Shown: positions 36,353 through 43,959 of the stretch, one piece after another
How positions within the stretch are numbered: position 1 is the stretch's first letter
Layout: each line of letters opens with the position of its first letter
Assembly: GCA_965116885.1 (NCBI GenBank)
Contig: OZ220741.1
Span: 704,001 to 768,000 of the forward strand
DNA length: 64,000 nucleotides
Direction of reading: 5' to 3'
DNA from: Candidatus Latescibacterota bacterium
GTDB lineage: Bacteria; Latescibacterota; UBA2968
Position numbers and translations under genes: made by a program
Notes under the pieces: generated by a model
What the model was told of the DNA's origin: nothing
Database searches by the model: none
Seen by the model: the letters and a program-made list of their open reading frames with translations, nothing else

Positions 36353-36482
36353 CTCGTGCCTCCTTGAAATCAAAATGCTATTCAACCACATTATCAGAAG
36401 TATAACGCAACATATCGGGGAAAGCAAACCCGATATGCGCTGTATCTGCATCGTTCAAAAGATAGGACTTTGTCTCTTCAAT

Positions 36483-36548
36483 ATCAAATGCCCAACCCTT
36501 GACAGTAAGGAGATTTTTAAATAGAATCTGATGGCGGTTATAAAGACC
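36483..36548 (+). repeat. Direct repeat copy 1, containing sigma70 promoter TTGACA-N17-TAGAAT
   Basis: atcaaatgccc..ccTTGACAgtaaggagatttttaaaTAGAATctgatg...ttataaagacc; near-identical to 36888-36953. Confidence 0.9.
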
Positions 36549-36820: not shown

Positions 36821-36887
36821 TGATGGTTTTGACCAATGATTTTTCGCAATGACTTATCTGAAGTACTGTACAACGTTAATTTGTAAG

Positions 36888-36953
36888 ATCAAATGCCCGG
36901 CCTTGACAGTAAGGAGATTTTTAAATAGAATCTGATGATGATTTATAAAGACC
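36888..36953 (+). promoter_or_regulatory. Direct repeat copy 2: sigma70 promoter upstream of the DruA-NurA-HerA operon
   Basis: TTGACA 36903-36908, 17 nt spacer, TAGAAT 36926-36931. Confidence 0.85.
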
Positions 36954-37050: not shown

Positions 37051-38235
37051 ATGAACCTGATCTTGGTCATGAAACTTACGAAAAAAGAACGCTCCCTAAA
37101 AAAGCATCTGCTCAGTATGGTTGAGCAGTTGCCTTCTTCAGATGATGCGCTAAATAAAGAGCAGATCCGATCCTTACACGCAGGGAAACGCCTGTCCATC
37201 ATGGCATCTATGAATGGTTTTTTTAATCATCACATTGAACTTCTACGCGAGCATATTGCCAGTCCAAACGAAATCAATATCTCCAAGATTAAACCCTACT
37301 TAAGCGTCGTGGCGGGGGGAACAAGCGACTCTCAAATCTTCAACGCTGCCTCACTTCTCTGGTCCGTACCAGTAAGCAAAGGCTTCGGACGACGTATGCG
37401 TTACCTTGTAAGGGATAAAAACAATGGTAAACTCATCGGTATTATCGGCCTAACCGATCCCGTCTTTAACCTCACACCACGAGATGCCTGGGTTGGCTGG
37501 GATTCCAATGGTCGCAAGGAACGTTTAATTCATATTATGGATGCATTTGTGCTTGGTGCTATGCCACCCTACAGCAAAATTTTAGGTGGTAAACTGGTGG
37601 CCTTGTTGGCAACTTCGAGCGAAGTAGTAAAAAACTTCCGACTAAAATATCGCAACTATAAGGGTATAATAAGTGAAAGAAAGAAGGACCCTCGCCTTGT
37701 GCTTTTGACAACATCCTCAGCACTTGGTCGGTCATCGATATACAATCGCCTGCGAATTCCGGACAGTATTGCATTTCTCTCGAATGTTGAGAATAATCGA
37801 GTTCCAACATGGTACACACAAGGTTATGGACATTTCCATATCGACGATGATACATTCAGAAAACTACAGAATGTCCTCATTCGTCGTAAGCACTCCTACG
37901 CCAGAGGAAACAGGTTCGGTGATGGCCCAAACTGGCGTATCCGAGTCATTCGCAAAGCTACAATGGAACTGGGATTGAAAGCAGACATTCTTCAACACGG
38001 TATCCGTCGACAAGTTTTCGTTATCCCTCTCGCTCACAATACGCGCGACTTCCTTCTCGGAAGGGCAAAACGCCCTAAATATATCACGATGTCAGCGAAC
38101 CAAATTACTGACTATTGGATTGAAAGGTGGGCGAGTCCTCGGGCACGACGATTCCCAGAATGGAGGAAATGGAACCTCGAAGAAACGATTACGGACCTTC
38201 ATCGACTTCATATAGTCGCTAAAAAAATGGGCTAA
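37051..38235 (+). CDS. DUF4338 / Druantia DruA-like protein
   Basis: WSVPVSKGFGRRMRYLVRDKNNGKLIGIIGL.DPVFNL..RD.WVGW, MDAFVLGA.PPYS.ILGGKLVALL, TTSSALGRSSIYNRL, T.GYGHFH. Confidence 0.82.
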   Translation: MNLILVMKLTKKERSLKKHLLSMVEQLPSSDDALNKEQIRSLHAGKRLSIMASMNGFFNHHIELLREHIASPNEINISKIKPYLSVVAGGTSDSQIFNAASLLWSVPVSKGFGRRMRYLVRDKNNGKLIGIIGLTDPVFNLTPRDAWVGWDSNGRKERLIHIMDAFVLGAMPPYSKILGGKLVALLATSSEVVKNFRLKYRNYKGIISERKKDPRLVLLTTSSALGRSSIYNRLRIPDSIAFLSNVENNRVPTWYTQGYGHFHIDDDTFRKLQNVLIRRKHSYARGNRFGDGPNWRIRVIRKATMELGLKADILQHGIRRQVFVIPLAHNTRDFLLGRAKRPKYITMSANQITDYWIERWASPRARRFPEWRKWNLEETITDLHRLHIVAKKMG

Positions 38236-38239
38236 CAAC

Positions 38240-39403
38240 ATGTCACTAGCAAATCTGGACAGAGATGAACTTCGAAAAAGGATCGTAGAGGCATATAGCG
38301 CCGACGAACCACATCTTCAAAAGTTTCGTGAGTACGCAATACGCCTCCGAAACGGGGTGAAACCACTTCGTACCTATTCCGTCAATGCCGTCTCGTTTGT
38401 CTCCGCCGATGGAGGTGATAACCGTCTCACCTTCAATCCGGCAATTGTTGAACTTATACGTGTGGTAGATTCACGTGGTAATGAGCATGCGCTTGACGCC
38501 ATCTCCAGTACCATTAGTATTGAAGAACTGGAGAAAAGGGCCAAACAGGGATCAAGGCACACAATTACACCCTTGAAGCGATTAGCTCAGGATACAGGCA
38601 AAACGCTCAAACAGATGTCGTATCTTATCCGGGCACTCGGTACCCCTGGCAAAAGCACAGGAGCAATGCGATGCTACCGCGATATTGTGGAATGGGCTGT
38701 TCTATACGACCTTGTCGCTAACCCTAACCTTCAATGGGGAGGCGATACAATCTTGGTGCGAGATGGTCTCCTACGAACCAAATCGTTTTCTCGAGACATG
38801 TTTCCGCTACTTGATCAGAAAATTCGTGCCGGCATTGCCGCTCATGCCAAAAGAAATGTACAACTGTCATTGGTCGGTGTAGCTAAGCAAAGTGCCGTGC
38901 TTGGTCGCCTCGCTGTTGCTCTGGAACTTGAGGCGACATTCCACAAACCTTATCCCTGTTTTGTTCGGGTTGATCGTGATATTGAAGAAGAGTGCTACAA
39001 CTTCGATCGTACTTGGCTCGACACATATGAAACTACCGAAGAGGATGATACTGGCCGAAGACTTTACCAGTCCCTTGGAAAACTCTACCTCGTCAAATTC
39101 GGCGATAGACCAATGGATCCTGTCTGGCCTGTCGATATTGCCGTATGGCAGGTTCACCAAGCAGAACGCATCCTCGGACAACTGACGGTTGATGCTCAGC
39201 AGGGCTTTCCTATTCCGGACTATCCGATGTGCATCCAGCGAGCACACGATTTTGCAAAATTATCGGGACTCGAGATTCAGGATCTTCAGGATATGCTTCT
39301 TCAAGGGATGTGTAACAAACTTACGGCTGAAGAAACCGAACGCCTGCTTCGCCTGAAGTATTTAGGACAGACGCTGGCAAATCTCAGATACAAGGAGGCG
39401 TAA
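38240..39403 (+). CDS. NurA-like 5'-3' nuclease (RNase H-like fold)
   Basis: VSADGG, LVRDGLL, LVGVAKQS and C-terminal YPMCIQRAH, the motif order of NurA; immediately upstream of herA. Confidence 0.8.
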   Translation: MSLANLDRDELRKRIVEAYSADEPHLQKFREYAIRLRNGVKPLRTYSVNAVSFVSADGGDNRLTFNPAIVELIRVVDSRGNEHALDAISSTISIEELEKRAKQGSRHTITPLKRLAQDTGKTLKQMSYLIRALGTPGKSTGAMRCYRDIVEWAVLYDLVANPNLQWGGDTILVRDGLLRTKSFSRDMFPLLDQKIRAGIAAHAKRNVQLSLVGVAKQSAVLGRLAVALELEATFHKPYPCFVRVDRDIEEECYNFDRTWLDTYETTEEDDTGRRLYQSLGKLYLVKFGDRPMDPVWPVDIAVWQVHQAERILGQLTVDAQQGFPIPDYPMCIQRAHDFAKLSGLEIQDLQDMLLQGMCNKLTAEETERLLRLKYLGQTLANLRYKEA

Positions 39404-39404
39404 T

Positions 39405-41453
39405 ATGTTGTTTGCGGACTCGCAAATCATGGGCACATTCAAAGGGTTCAATGAACGCGGCCTGGAGTTTGCAGCCGAAATCGTTGCTCCATACGATGCA
39501 AGCATGCTTGACCGGCCACAACTCGGCCAGTTTCTTCTCGTCGAACTCGGGTCACAAGAGGAAGCATCTCTCGGACGTATAACTCGCTTCGTCCCTTCCG
39601 GATTGTTAGCGACACCGGAAGGAGAAGATTACGTAAACACAATGCAGCGTAGGCAGCAAGAGGTCCCCGAGGATCTGAAGGAGCAACGTCTCAAATATCG
39701 CGTCCAGGTGAAATTGCTCGGAGCAGTCCGCACAACCGATAACGGAATCATATACGTTCCTTCGCAACGCAGACTACCGCATCTCGGTGCTCGTGTCGCC
39801 TTGCCCAGCGCTCAAGTTCTGCAAGAACTCTGCAAACTAAGCCAAGGCGAGACGGAGTTGGGAGTGTACGTATTGGGTGAATTCGTATTCAGCGGTACTG
39901 AACACGACCAAACCCAGCCAGAACTAATATCATTTAATCCACGTCTTCAAGTCACCTTCGACATAAACAATCTCGTTTCCCGACGCTCTGTCGTCTTTGC
40001 ACGTGCAGGCTATGGAAAGTCCAATCTCGTCAAGTTCCTTATTGCGGAGTTGTATCAAAAACAACCGATGACCTCTAACAACCGTCCTGTCGGCACACTA
40101 ATTTTCGACCCTGATGGAGAGTACTTTTGGCCTGACCGTGTAGCGGATCGTCCAGGGTTATGCGATGTGCCAAACTTAAAAGAACGACTCTTAGTGTTCA
40201 CCAACAGACCGGCTCCAAACGCATACTATGGCAGTTGGAAAGCTGGCGAGGTGAAGCTCGACATTCGAGACCTCTCCCCACGTGATGTAATCAGTATCGC
40301 AATTTCTTCTGATCGCCAAACCCAACAAAATGTGCTCAAGCTCAAGAGCGTCTCCGATTCTAACTGGCGTAAACTTGTTGATCTGACCCATCAACAGGGA
40401 CTACAGGCCAGTGATGAGGAAGTCGGTCAACTCCTTGGCTATACCGGGTCACAAATCTCTCAGAACGTAGCAGAAATTGGGGCTGCTCGTAGCAACATGT
40501 CTGGCGTAGTACGTACCCTCCATGACCCGGACAGCCAAGTGCTGTCGGGAACGCTACAAGCTTTGGCGAACGGGAGAATTGTTGTAATTGATATCAGCTT
40601 ATTGAGTTCGAGTGCTGGCAATATGCTCGCCGGACTGCTTCTCCGTAGAATATTCTCGCACAATCAGGAGCACTTCACGGGTGGAGATCCCATCATTCCC
40701 GTTGTTGCCATTGTGGAAGAGGCACAAAGTGTCCTTGGTCGTAATCTGGACGATACCAGTCCCTATGTCGAATGGGTGAAGGAAGGACGCAAGTACGATC
40801 TGGGAGCCATGCTTATCACACAACAACCGGGTGCGATGGCACCCGAACTACTTAGTCAGGCGGACAACTGGTTCTGTTTTCATTTACTCTCGGAAGGTGA
40901 TGCCAGTATTCTCGGAAGGTATAACTCTCATTACTCATCAGATATTCTCGCTCATCTTATCGCAGAACCTATTCCTGGTAACTGCTACATGTGGAGCGCA
41001 CCCCACCAACCCTTTGTTCTTCCCGTTCGCCTACGTGATTTTGGTGAAATCTATAAAGACAATATATGCAAAGATGAACAGGCGCAAGCCATTGAAGGCA
41101 CAGGTGCTAAAGAAGTGATTAAAGCAACTTCGGACGCAATGGCTCGCATTAAAGACAATATGGTGGAGCAATTGAAGGATCGCAGTACCAAGTACTATGT
41201 GGTCCCTAACAGGGTCAATGAGAGGCAAGAGTTACTTGGGATATCTGATGGGCAATTGTACTACCTCATCAAAAATAGCAAAAATCCTGAAGATAGCCGG
41301 ACAGAAAATGAACTAAAACGCCCAATTCTCACACTGTTGCTCGGCGAAGGAAATCTTCATATAGTCGAACATGATAGCAAGCAGTACTATTGCGCGACCC
41401 CTCAGGACTGGGAGCGCGTGATAGGAAGGCAACCGCCGCGCTCATACCTATAA
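39405..41453 (+). CDS. HerA/FtsK-family ATPase (HAS barrel plus helicase/translocase domain)
   Basis: N-terminal beta-barrel, Walker A ARAGYGKS, IFDPDGEY, Walker B IVEEAQ, KEGRKY, ITQQP; GGAGG RBS. Confidence 0.9.
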   Translation: MLFADSQIMGTFKGFNERGLEFAAEIVAPYDASMLDRPQLGQFLLVELGSQEEASLGRITRFVPSGLLATPEGEDYVNTMQRRQQEVPEDLKEQRLKYRVQVKLLGAVRTTDNGIIYVPSQRRLPHLGARVALPSAQVLQELCKLSQGETELGVYVLGEFVFSGTEHDQTQPELISFNPRLQVTFDINNLVSRRSVVFARAGYGKSNLVKFLIAELYQKQPMTSNNRPVGTLIFDPDGEYFWPDRVADRPGLCDVPNLKERLLVFTNRPAPNAYYGSWKAGEVKLDIRDLSPRDVISIAISSDRQTQQNVLKLKSVSDSNWRKLVDLTHQQGLQASDEEVGQLLGYTGSQISQNVAEIGAARSNMSGVVRTLHDPDSQVLSGTLQALANGRIVVIDISLLSSSAGNMLAGLLLRRIFSHNQEHFTGGDPIIPVVAIVEEAQSVLGRNLDDTSPYVEWVKEGRKYDLGAMLITQQPGAMAPELLSQADNWFCFHLLSEGDASILGRYNSHYSSDILAHLIAEPIPGNCYMWSAPHQPFVLPVRLRDFGEIYKDNICKDEQAQAIEGTGAKEVIKATSDAMARIKDNMVEQLKDRSTKYYVVPNRVNERQELLGISDGQLYYLIKNSKNPEDSRTENELKRPILTLLLGEGNLHIVEHDSKQYYCATPQDWERVIGRQPPRSYL

Positions 41454-41660: not shown

Positions 41661-42422
41661 ATGCCTGATCAGTCGCACCTGGATGACCGTTATTTTGTGG
41701 ACAATACTGTCTATAATTGCCCTTTTTGCAACCGTCGAAATGTCTCGTATTACATATATGATAAGGTATCTTTTGATTGGACTGAGGACAAACCCTGTCA
41801 TGTTTACTTTGCCCGATGTGGTTCGTGCAGCGGAAAATCAATGCATTTGTCCTTTAGAGACTTGAAACTATATGGTATAGGCGATGGACGTAGTTCTCTA
41901 TTCTTATCTTCTCAGATGTCTTCAGAGTCACTTGATGATCAGTTTTTTTATTCCGTTCCAACATCTTTTTTTGTTTTGGATAAACGCATTCCCCGAATTC
42001 TGCGTGAGCTTCTCATCGAGGCCGAGGGTTCTCTCAAGAGTAACTTTCTAACCGGTGCCTCAGCTTGTGCTCGTAAGATCATCTATGAACTGGGATCGCT
42101 TCAAGAGGTTGATGGTGACAATTACGAAGATCGTATCAAATCACTTAAAGACAAACATCCGGAAGTAGAGCCGACGTATTTTGACACGCTCCTTACAATC
42201 CAACAGGTGACAAGTTCCAAGGTTCATGAGGATTCATACGATGGCTGGAAGTCGCAACATTTACAAATTATCCTTGCATCCCTTCGAGAAATTCTTCACG
42301 AGTTATATGTAGTGCCAGCATTGCGCGATGACAGGAGAAAATCAATTCTGGATTTAAAAAAGGAGTTGATTCCAGAGGATGTTTCAGTATCGGAGAGCAG
42401 CGATGAAGAGACAGGCACCTGA
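41661..42422 (+). CDS. DUF4145 (HEPN-like) protein with N-terminal Zn ribbon
   Basis: CPFC...CGSC, then IP..LRELL.EA..S...N...GASACARKIIYEL...L.DK...S.KVH. Confidence 0.7.
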   Translation: MPDQSHLDDRYFVDNTVYNCPFCNRRNVSYYIYDKVSFDWTEDKPCHVYFARCGSCSGKSMHLSFRDLKLYGIGDGRSSLFLSSQMSSESLDDQFFYSVPTSFFVLDKRIPRILRELLIEAEGSLKSNFLTGASACARKIIYELGSLQEVDGDNYEDRIKSLKDKHPEVEPTYFDTLLTIQQVTSSKVHEDSYDGWKSQHLQIILASLREILHELYVVPALRDDRRKSILDLKKELIPEDVSVSESSDEETGT

Positions 42423-42460
42423 CAAGTGTACCATCAGATGAATTTGTAGATTTTAACGAT

Positions 42461-42751
42461 ATGATTATTCGTTCTGTTCGCCATAGAGGCTTGCGCCATC
42501 TGCTTGAGGATAATAATCCCAGGTTCCTGCGACAAGACTTGGTTGACCGGGTACGCAAAATTTTGACGGCCCTGATCCTCGCCGAACTTATGGACAACTT
42601 TATCGCCAATGCACCACCCGGCTGGCGTATCCATCGGCTCTCAGGTGACCGGCAGAGTGAATGGAGCATTTCGGTATCTGGCAATTGGCGGATTACCTTT
42701 ACACAAGATGGCGAATACATTGACCGCTTGAATTTGGAGGATTATCACTAA
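42461..42751 (+). CDS. higB: HigB-like (RelE/ParE superfamily) toxin
   Basis: IRSVRHRGL, PGWRIHRLSGDR, WSISVSGNWRITF, LEDYH. Confidence 0.92.
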   Translation: MIIRSVRHRGLRHLLEDNNPRFLRQDLVDRVRKILTALILAELMDNFIANAPPGWRIHRLSGDRQSEWSISVSGNWRITFTQDGEYIDRLNLEDYH

Positions 42752-43056
42752 TGGCTGACAACGGCATTGAAATAACCATGACACCTTCGCATCCCGGAGA
42801 TTTCATCCGCACGGAAATTGTCGAGGAACTGGGCTTGAGTGTTACAGAGGCAGCCGAGATTCTGGACGTTCATCGAGCCACTCTTTCCGACCTGTTGAAC
42901 AGCAATACAACCCTATCAGCGGAGATGGCACTGCGTATTGAGAAAGCCTTTGGCATCAGCATGGATACACTGTTGCGAATGCAAGCGTGGTACGACGCCG
43001 CGCAAATGCGGGCGCGTGCTAATGAGATAGAAGTCAAACGCTATCAACCTGCTTGA
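42751..43056 (+). CDS. higA: HigA (VapI) HTH antitoxin
   Basis: PSHPGDFIR, GLSVTEAAEILDV.RATLSDLLN, SAEMALRIEKAFG, LRMQAWYD; overlaps the toxin stop codon. Confidence 0.92.
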   Translation: MADNGIEITMTPSHPGDFIRTEIVEELGLSVTEAAEILDVHRATLSDLLNSNTTLSAEMALRIEKAFGISMDTLLRMQAWYDAAQMRARANEIEVKRYQPA

Positions 43057-43097
43057 AAACAACCGCAGACGAACTTCGATTTTTTGAGAAAAAAACA

Positions 43098-43316
43098 ATG
43101 AAAATATCTTATGATCGGGAAGTGGATGCGCTGTACATTTGCTTCAAAGAAACAACCGTTACAACGAAACATCTCGAAGATGGTATTGCGCTGGATTACG
43201 ATGAGGAAGACCGCCTCGCGGGCATTGAAATTCTCGACGCCCTGAAGCGGCTGGATGATCCAGAGATATTCAAACAGGTCATCATTGAAGACATCGCACT
43301 CGGTGAAATCCGTTAG
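43098..43316 (+). CDS. DUF2283 domain protein
   Basis: MKISYDREVDALYI...DYD....LAGIEILDA. Confidence 0.85.
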   Translation: MKISYDREVDALYICFKETTVTTKHLEDGIALDYDEEDRLAGIEILDALKRLDDPEIFKQVIIEDIALGEIR

Positions 43317-43329
43317 TTATAAATTTGCT

Positions 43330-43959
43330 ATGAATCTTGAGAACAAAATACTTTTAACGCCCGATACTTCTAACTATCCAGCGGCATTACAGCGTTGTTC
43401 CGATAATGGGTGTCTGCCGACGGTCACAGCGCAGGGCAACCTCGATTTACTCGACAGTACATTGCTCGGCTTCTTCTGCTCGGTGCGCTCACCCGGCGAT
43501 ACAATCCTCAAGACCTACGATCTTGCGCGGACACTCCGGGATACAGACGCGACAATCATCGGCGGTTTTCAGTCGCCAATGGAAAAGGAGTGTCTGGATT
43601 TGTTGTTGCGGGGCACGGCACCCGTCGTCGTCTGCCCGGCGCGGGGACTCAATCGCATGCCGAAAAGCTGGCAGAAACCGCTCGCCGAAGGACGCATGCT
43701 AATTCTTTCCTTTTTCAACGGCAACATCCATCGCCCAACCGCAGCCATAGCAACCCGGCGCAACGCGTACATCGCCGCACTCGCCGACCGCATCCTCATC
43801 GCCCATGCAGAACCGGGTGGCAAAACAGAGACCCTGTGCAAGAACGCGCTGGCTCAAAACAAGCCGGTGTTCGTCCTGGACTCACCTGACAATGCCCACC
43901 TCATAGAACTCGGCACCATACCTATCCCGGCTGACAGCCTCGAAAAATTTACCTCTTGA
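43330..43959 (+). CDS. Short DprA/SMF-like Rossmann (SLOG) protein
   Basis: YPAAL, GNLDLL, GFFCS, IIGGFQSPME, RRNAYIAALAD.ILIAHA..GG.T, NKPVF. Confidence 0.75.
   Translation: MNLENKILLTPDTSNYPAALQRCSDNGCLPTVTAQGNLDLLDSTLLGFFCSVRSPGDTILKTYDLARTLRDTDATIIGGFQSPMEKECLDLLLRGTAPVVVCPARGLNRMPKSWQKPLAEGRMLILSFFNGNIHRPTAAIATRRNAYIAALADRILIAHAEPGGKTETLCKNALAQNKPVFVLDSPDNAHLIELGTIPIPADSLEKFTS

Follow-up and report, generated by a model that had tools for sequence, protein, structure and literature searches.

The 64,000 nucleotides considered here, which belong to a genome of Candidatus Latescibacterota (contig OZ220741.1, positions 704,001 to 768,000; hereafter the window), carry a compact cassette of three genes in which a DruA protein, the namesake of the Druantia anti-phage systems, is followed by a predicted nuclease of the NurA fold (gene 2, abbreviated N) and by an ATPase of the HerA type (gene 3, abbreviated H). 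This cassette is a recurrent unit that moves horizontally among bacterial phyla, and probably it constitutes a system of defense against phages or plasmids. The fuller account that we favor, namely a mobile defense cassette in which the products of genes 2 and 3 would form a complex like TdpAB and DruA would mark DNA, is proposed tentatively, its likelihood as a whole falling somewhat short of even. Two known systems serve as landmarks throughout: Druantia type I, which Doron et al. are said to have described in 2018 as the set DruABCDE, and TdpABC, which An et al. reportedly presented in Nat Chem Biol in 2025 as a phosphorothioate-dependent restriction-modification system of thermophiles. The new system is known here from sequences and structural models.

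Gene Identities and Catalytic Motifs

The three genes share the same orientation and are separated by gaps of 4 nucleotides (nt) between genes 1 and 2 and of 1 nt between genes 2 and 3, a layout which had been pointed out in a sequence-only reading of the window and with which the coordinates of the open reading frames (ORFs) agree (table 1); all the motifs quoted in that reading are present in the three translations. Gene 1 encodes a full-length DruA of the DUF4338 family, matching Pfam PF14236 (1.5e-79; 267.7 bits versus a cut-off of 27) and the PADLOC model for DruA, PDLC00002 (5.5e-126, residues 12-387 of 407), and displaying the motifs GRRMRYLVRD (residues 113-122), NGKLIG (125-130), and PPYSKILGGKL (172-182). 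The protein is strongly basic, with 67 lysine plus arginine versus 33 aspartate plus glutamate residues and a net charge of +34, and its true start may be the ATG at position 37069.

The product of gene 2 had been called NurA-like, a claim that holds for its motifs (SADGGDN at residues 55-61, LVRDGLL at 172-178, VGVAKQS at 212-218, and YPMCIQRAHD at 328-337) and for its fold kinship, but not for its recognition as a NurA by family searches, where no match is found in Pfam (E <= 1), PADLOC, or NCBIfam. Its AlphaFold model, obtained with 28 homologues and having a predicted local distance difference test (pLDDT) value of 80, is closest to TdpB, chain 8wet_G of the TdpAB complex solved by cryo-electron microscopy (Foldseek 2.4e-12; template modeling scores 0.62/0.66), followed by NurA 2ygk (5.5e-5) and by NurA chains solved in complex with HerA; similarity to PIWI and EndoV proteins is weaker. 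The likeness to TdpB is at the level of the fold, with a sequence identity of 15-16% and an E value of 0.012 for the sequence profile. Residues D57, E151, D175, and H336 show no variation among 28 sequences and would fit an RNase H-like acidic active site. Additional matches of the gene 2 profile to designer PPR proteins are repeat artefacts. Relatives of the protein number 887 among 90% clusters (E <= 0.001) and 297 among 50% representatives; the best 120 of the 887 are all at least 71% identical to it and carry no informative names. Searches of 72,556 plasmids and of 50,697 phage records yielded no match.

Gene 3 matches the central domain of DUF87/HerA (1.7e-26), in agreement with its earlier assignment to HerA. 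Among solved structures it is matched best by TdpA (5.8e-23), the Walker A, EEA, EGRKY, and TQxP motifs being aligned between the two proteins, and less well by Sir2-HerA, DUF4297-HerA, and archaeal HerA entries. In the gene 3 product these motifs read ARAGYGKS (residues 199-206), EEAQ, EGRKY, and TQQP, and they are invariant in 35 of 35 homologues. The Walker A sequence had been considered a variant, a description that must be dropped: ARAGYGKS fits the classical pattern [AG]x4GK[ST], and TdpA carries GKTGFGKS at the same position. Beyond this core, the C-terminus of the ATPase is hypervariable (residues 551-682, window positions 41055-41450), showing a mean identity of 28-44% versus 64-89% in the core and having no counterpart in TdpA (586 aa).

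From this kinship, the products of genes 2 and 3 are most likely joined in a complex similar to TdpAB, in which the hexameric ATPase of HerA type would thread DNA and the nuclease of NurA fold would cut the threaded DNA.

Recurrence, Horizontal Spread, and Genomic Context

A search for relatives of gene 2 in a set of one genome per species produced 44 loci (L001-L044, with up to 10 kb of flank), all from metagenome-assembled genomes and, according to their record titles, from 15 phyla. Two of these loci are contig stubs (L035, L042) and were left out; among the 42 assessable ones, 35 have DruA abutting the pair of genes 2 and 3 (tblastn), distributed over 13 phyla, so that the recurrent association anticipated by the sequence-only reading is indeed found. 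DruA precedes the pair in 21 loci (order DruA-N-H) and follows it in 14 (order N-H-DruA), most of these 14 being of Bacteroidota, and the gaps within the cassette are mostly below 10 nt or replaced by overlaps (locus ORFs being defined by a simple longest-ORF rule). The same sub-clades, for instance L009/L023/L031, L027/L029, and L003-5, appear in the trees of DruA and of gene 2, both of which derive from quick IQ-TREE searches. Identity to the window proteins spans 31-77% for DruA, 57-87% for gene 2, and 55-86% for gene 3, DruA being the fastest-evolving component. At the nucleotide level, similarity to the closest loci (Latescibacterota, Oxydemutator, and Nitrospirota; 73-80%) extends from about 37068 to about 41449; since it stops at the edges of the cassette, the three genes are the unit that moves.

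Base composition is foreign as well, and the AT-rich character and the different codon usage pointed out previously for the cassette are both found. The GC content is 0.44-0.50 over 36-43 kb, a low-GC island of about 7.5 kb, versus about 0.55 in the flanks, while GC at third codon positions is 0.446, 0.443, and 0.485 for genes 1, 2, and 3 versus 0.51-0.68 for 13 flanking metabolic and transport genes. Codon choice is shifted as well with respect to the flanking genes, as in the case of CGT (0.08 to 0.27). Scans of the whole window with Rfam and for tRNA genes found nothing, and so neither an att-site nor an RNA explains the island.

Defense-type genes lie within two genes of the cassette in at least 17 of the 42 loci, as judged from 148 of 153 neighboring ORFs, two per side (table 1); the defense-island setting that had been expected for the cassette is thus present. 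Among the same neighbors no genes for phosphorothioate synthesis of the Dnd/Ssp type were found. The fused HTH-M78 peptidase that precedes three cassettes of the N-H-DruA form resembles PD-Lambda-2_B, RmrA, and CapP proteins and is likely a damage-responsive regulator. Some pairs lie instead between metabolic genes (L007, L012).

The mobility of the cassette invites a different reading, in which it would be a selfish addiction module, or one for the maintenance of mobile elements, having its own retention and spread as main effect. Restriction-modification-like modules can act as addiction modules, the cassette passes as a unit from one phylum to another, and decayed copies of it exist: L034 and L044 are fragmented, gene 2 is truncated in L039, the ATPase gene is interrupted in L016, and L021 has one stop codon. 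However, no integrase, transposase, or replication gene travels along with the cassette, transposase or integrase neighbors being present in L023 and L044 only, and the reading is in any case compatible with a role in defense; we consider it quite unlikely. The interruption in L016 (11167-14138) splits the ATPase gene near residue 395 by about 1.3 kb containing an ORF of 429 aa without Pfam match, after which homology resumes.

Table 1. Positions of the cassette genes in the window and of features found beside related cassettes or elsewhere
Feature	Locus	Position	Strand	Remarks
Gene 1, druA	window	37051-38235	+	ORF, 394 aa; DUF4338
Gene 2, TdpB-like nuclease of NurA/RNase H-like fold (predicted)	window	38240-39403	+	ORF, 387 aa
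Gene 3, TdpA-like ATPase of HerA/FtsK type, putative translocase	window	39405-41453	+	ORF, 682 aa
Sigma-70-like promoter, TTGACA-17-TAGAAT	window	36903-36931	+	pattern match alone, 11/12 positions
GmrSD neighbors	L009, L010, L014, L019			
Type I or ISP restriction neighbors	L010, L011, L014			
Methylase neighbors	L006, L036, L043			
MamI neighbor	L027			
Gabija GajA/GajB neighbors	L038			
HipA or PIN neighbors	L003, L005, L025			
DpdE/DrmD-like helicase neighbor	L025			
PDC-S01-like neighbors	L030			
HNH/Ymh neighbors	L037			
Fused HTH-M78 peptidase gene	L027	8882-9994		2-3 nt upstream of N-H-DruA form
Fused HTH-M78 peptidase gene	L029	8892-9995		2-3 nt upstream of N-H-DruA form
Fused HTH-M78 peptidase gene	L036	6822-7916		2-3 nt upstream of N-H-DruA form
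DruE-like helicase, 1694 aa	L013	13232-18316		PADLOC DruE 6e-86; convergent, touching cassette
DruE-like helicase, 1727 aa	L025	14406-19589		PADLOC DruE 3e-88; convergent, touching cassette
Stand-alone DruA-like protein	L050	2611-3909		phage record
Stand-alone DruA-like protein	L051	2806-3927		phage record

Regarding the immediate surroundings of the cassette in the window, the near-consensus promoter claimed upstream of it is present as a putative site, with the ATG of gene 1 lying 120 nt past it; promoter-like sites are not in excess in the region (6 versus 10.7 +/- 3.7 in shuffles). An identical TTGACA-17-TAGAAT occurs at 36499-36527 because a segment of about 70 nt is duplicated (copies at 36480-36548 and 36885-36953, with a spacing of 404 nt and an exact 37-nt core at 36497-36533 and 36901-36937), the operon promoter being in the second copy; the duplicated motif was not found in other loci (49 compared). 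The two copies enclose a nested hairpin, with arms at 36639-36652/36706-36719 and 36654-36665/36674-36685 and a folding z-score of only -1.9, that has no match in Rfam, and the first promoter copy could drive a small transcript.

Downstream of the cassette, the ORF at 41661-42422 (253 aa) is, with 0.42, the lowest in GC content within the island and matches neither Pfam nor PADLOC; the ESM Atlas leads to clusters that are in part DUF4145 (score 0.96), and the ORF is not conserved beside the cassette elsewhere. It is followed by an HTH_3 gene (42751-43056), the product of which is 68% identical to a homologue directly upstream of DruA in L002, and by a DprA-like gene (43255-43959; PADLOC PsyrA 1.8e-15) without a PsyrT partner. 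The segment 43098-43299 is 85% identical, in reversed orientation, to L004 13541-13742, which lies downstream of the L004 cassette. Of these island genes (41661-43959), only the HTH gene recurs with a cassette, in L002, and on this basis they would not be counted as part of the system.

The Possible Role of DruA

In functional terms, the cassette raises a question: What would DruA contribute to a pair that has its own motor and its own nuclease? The predicted model of DruA (pLDDT 84.8) retrieves from PDB top matches that are all GNAT-fold acyltransferases, among them the RNA cytidine acetylase NAT10 and Mom of phage Mu, the best having an E value of 0.026. In the viral library BFVD, the best matches are uncharacterised proteins of giant viruses and phages (1e-16 to 3e-9), with Mom at rank 10. 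Direct values for Mom are probability 0.93 and TMt 0.46 with PDB 8bv8, and probability 0.99 and TMt 0.59 with the BFVD entry, while the Atlas lead is GNAT-phage-like PF22559 (score 0.82). DUF4338 is also termed a GNAT domain in PMC10853773. Residue K181 of the conserved LGGKL loop is invariant, also in two phage homologues, and the loop is a candidate cofactor loop for acyl-CoA. Searches of PDB sequences with the DruA profile or the single sequence produced artefacts (polyubiquitin repeats, 0 stretches) or nothing.

Outside the cassette, stand-alone homologues of the DruA core are present in 22 phage records, mostly of cyanophages and pelagiphages, and share its core motifs including the LGGKL loop; one of them is annotated as 'methylcarbamoylase mom' and lies among replication (clamp-loader) genes. 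DruA-like phage proteins have been pointed out also in the Phold preprint. At the fold level, similar proteins occur in the giant viruses Faunusvirus, Yasminevirus, and Dasosvirus (E 1e-16 to 1e-8).

Two further observations concern DNA modification. Host DNA is reported to acquire a new 'm6A' signal from Druantia type I, in which a methylase domain is absent and the gene responsible was not assigned (preprint bioRxiv 10.1101/2024.04.14.589459, repeated in 10.64898/2026.05.12.722862). In the distant locus L043, the slot 2 nt upstream of gene 2 is taken by a DNA methylase gene. Together with the GNAT-type folds, the basic charge, the phage homologues, the kinship of the pair with TdpAB, and the nesting of canonical Druantia type I DruAs among those of the cassette, these observations favor DruA as a self-marking enzyme. 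On this interpretation, DruA, a basic protein with a putative GNAT fold, would most likely mark host DNA covalently, comparable to TdpC in relation to TdpAB and to phage Mom, so that unmarked incoming DNA alone would be degraded and self discriminated from non-self. A more specific version, which we regard as doubtful though worth stating, is that DruA is a Mom-like DNA modifier, perhaps acylating or carbamoylmethylating the N6 of adenine, and thereby producing a self mark, neither methyl nor phosphorothioate, that would be read by two unrelated restriction machines, DruBCDE in Druantia type I and the HerA/NurA pair in the cassette. If true, this would amount to a new chemical class of restriction-modification, against which phages such as cyanophages and pelagiphages, and possibly giant viruses, would carry stand-alone DruA as a counter-measure.

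Several points weigh against DruA as a marker or against the strength of the case for it. The DruA model has no match in PDB at E <= 0.001, its GNAT matches are weak, and when profiles are compared, the similarity to Mu Mom falls short of significance (probability 0.15). PMC10853773 groups DUF4338 with the variable N-terminal domains of DndF, beside HEPN and nucleases, which would suit an effector better than a marker. The 'm6A' result comes from an unreviewed preprint and was not attributed there to DruA (10.1101/2024.04.14.589459). The case of L043 stands alone, in a highly divergent locus where the gene for the ATPase is damaged. Each of the 44 loci comes from a metagenome-assembled genome, and several copies are fragmented (L016, L021, L034, L039, L044). 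The gene 2-3 pair lacks an adjacent DruA in 7 of the 42 loci. Of these, L007 and L012 nest in the window's own gene 2 clade with 99% support and L030 in the DruA-N-H clade, indicating a loss or relocation of DruA in these cases; nonetheless, the pair of L007/L012 is under purifying selection, with a ratio of nonsynonymous to synonymous substitutions (dN/dS) of 0.14-0.15. One would expect a restriction module left without protection to be harmful. The persistence of L007/L012 may mean either that DruA is elsewhere in the genome or that DNA ends are the sole target of the pair, DruA then having another role, and orphan pairs speak against an obligatory role for DruA.

These points lead to an alternative that we consider possible but not likely, in which the cassette still serves defense while DruA is not a DNA marker: the complex would attack the free ends of invading linear DNA, and DruA would be a sensor, a regulator, or a second effector, its acyltransferase function being directed to a phage protein, to the complex itself or, as in GNAT toxins, to tRNA. 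Besides the viability under selection of orphan pairs and the company of DUF4338 in DndF, the alternative accommodates the way in which DruA outpaces its partners in divergence and the hypervariable C-terminus of the ATPase, as expected of parts engaged in an arms race, even if both features would also be compatible with changing specificity. It accords also with the effectors with which HerA partners in Sir2-HerA and DUF4297-HerA. It is less compatible with the closest solved relative, TdpAB, being controlled by modification: TdpAB carries out the restriction in a system that depends on modification and in which a third gene, tdpC, modifies DNA (PMC12914056). Nor does it agree easily with a modification signal of Druantia type I for which no methylase accounts, with the strongly basic DruA, or with the stand-alone phage proteins, easier to explain by self-protective marking.

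Two other approaches to the partnership of DruA contribute little. None of 21 longer DruA proteins (691-1227 aa; all 21 compared by BLAST with genes 2 and 3, and 13 scanned with Pfam) is fused to gene 2 or gene 3, so that Rosetta-stone support for the partnership is absent, and complex prediction for DruA and the gene 2 protein gave a score of 0.00 which, obtained without controls, is evidence neither way. Among the pairs of a different kind, L040 (10001-13956) and L041 (10001-13971) are divergent (42-44% and 52% identity) and have, 4-10 nt after the pair, a DUF3047 protein instead of DruA; they adjoin two B12-radical SAM genes and show dN/dS values of 0.13-0.22, and the DUF3047 protein of L040 finds nothing in PDB.

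Comparison with Known Systems

With respect to Druantia type I, the DruA of the cassette is a true full-length member of the same family, 41-45% identical to the DruAs of plasmid-borne DruABCDE operons (Ralstonia, Nitrosococcus, and P. putida), whereas the motor and the nuclease are of HerA/NurA type. DruB, DruC, and DruD are found neither in the window nor in L001-L044 (tblastn with queries from three plasmid systems, E <= 1e-3), and genes 2 and 3 match none of their PADLOC models; the window, in which the largest ORF has 791 aa, contains no DruE-type helicase either, so that the absence of all four proteins noted in the sequence-only reading stands. The cassette is not a member of Druantia, the defining parts of which were looked for and are absent. 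A DruE-like gene occurs within 10 kb of only 3 of the 35 loci bearing DruA: in L013 and L025 it would make a four-gene form of DruA, HerA/NurA, and DruE (table 1), and in L002 a partial helicase lies about 6.5 kb from the cassette.

In the tree of DruA, canonical Druantia type I proteins nest in a clade with 13 cassette DruAs (92% support in the Shimodaira-Hasegawa-like approximate likelihood ratio test, SH-aLRT), a quick tree including four canonical sequences, three of which fall in this clade. Such nesting implies that DruA has been exchanged between both contexts, one type of DruA serving two different sets of motor and nuclease. The intermixing, together with the helicases of L013, L025, and L002, could also be taken to mean that the cassette is a reduced or alternative Druantia, in which the HerA/NurA pair replaces just DruB/C/D and a DruE-type helicase has to come from elsewhere. 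We find this unlikely, given the scarcity of nearby DruE-like genes, a transferred unit of exactly three genes, and a cassette provided with its own motor and nuclease. A Meiothermus plasmid (L046, 5249-13074) has DruA with a large helicase annotated as DEAD/DEAH-box, a putative DruE by position, without DruB/C/D and flanked by transposases, an arrangement that is either a remnant or a minimal form.

The archaeal and bacterial HerA-NurA complex that resects DNA ends at double-strand breaks shares with the cassette its folds and the succession of a nuclease gene and an ATPase gene. This kinship, and the location of some pairs between metabolic genes, would be in keeping with a housekeeping machine for resection or repair to which an accessory protein was added, with no part in immunity. 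However, gene 2 misses the Pfam NurA model, Mre11/Rad50 genes are not found among the scanned neighbors (compare L052), the neighbors being defense genes, and inheritance is horizontal and patchy, with 57-87% identity over 15 phyla and foreign composition. The Pontibacillus repair operon NurA-HerA-Mre11-Rad50 is only 26% identical to gene 3, while gene 2 is unmatched in the same plasmid collection. A housekeeping role thus appears very unlikely indeed. Sir2-HerA and DUF4297-HerA resemble the cassette in pairing an ATPase of the HerA family with another enzyme; nonetheless, gene 3 gives only weak matches to the PADLOC and NCBIfam models of anti-phage HerA (6.7e-19; 50.7 bits versus a cut-off of 800), far under the family cut-offs, and no Sir2 or DUF4297 domain is present in genes 1-2 (Pfam, PADLOC).

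As a system, the cassette is not recognized by PADLOC v2 (2023) or NCBIfam (2026), and no description of DruA combined with HerA/NurA was found among the papers listed by full-text searches of the literature, a coverage of main texts that did not extend to the TdpABC paper; Bell et al. (2025), writing on YprA helicases, make no mention of HerA or NurA in the main text. The claim that the triplet is undescribed and matches no catalogued system is borne out within these limits, and the cassette adds a system that both resources miss. Its significance lies also in its simplicity. Druantia type I ranks with the strongest anti-phage systems known, yet its accessory proteins have no assigned function, whereas the cassette joins the same DruA to a well-understood kind of motor and nuclease within 4.4 kb, offering a simpler model for the role of DruA.

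The fold of phage Mu Mom, a GNAT-like enzyme modifying DNA adenine, is among the named folds nearest to the DruA model, but DruA exceeds Mom by about 160 residues, has additional parts at both termini, and shows no significant sequence or profile similarity to it. Correspondence is found with TdpABC (PDB entries 8wet/8wfd), the study of which is cited also in PMC13223576: TdpB by fold and TdpA by sequence are the closest solved relatives of genes 2 and 3, and both systems consist of three genes for an accessory enzyme, an ATPase of HerA type, and a nuclease of NurA fold. Consequently, the combination of a modification enzyme with a restriction complex of HerA/NurA type is a design already known. 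The cassette differs in having DruA in the place of TdpC, in an ATPase that is about 100 residues longer with a variable C-terminus, and in its hosts, which are environmental genomes of mesophile type. Restriction modules of TdpAB type are therefore not confined to the phosphorothioate systems of thermophiles but extend, with a different partner, to at least 13 phyla of environmental bacteria, and the cassette is Tdp-like in its restriction half only.

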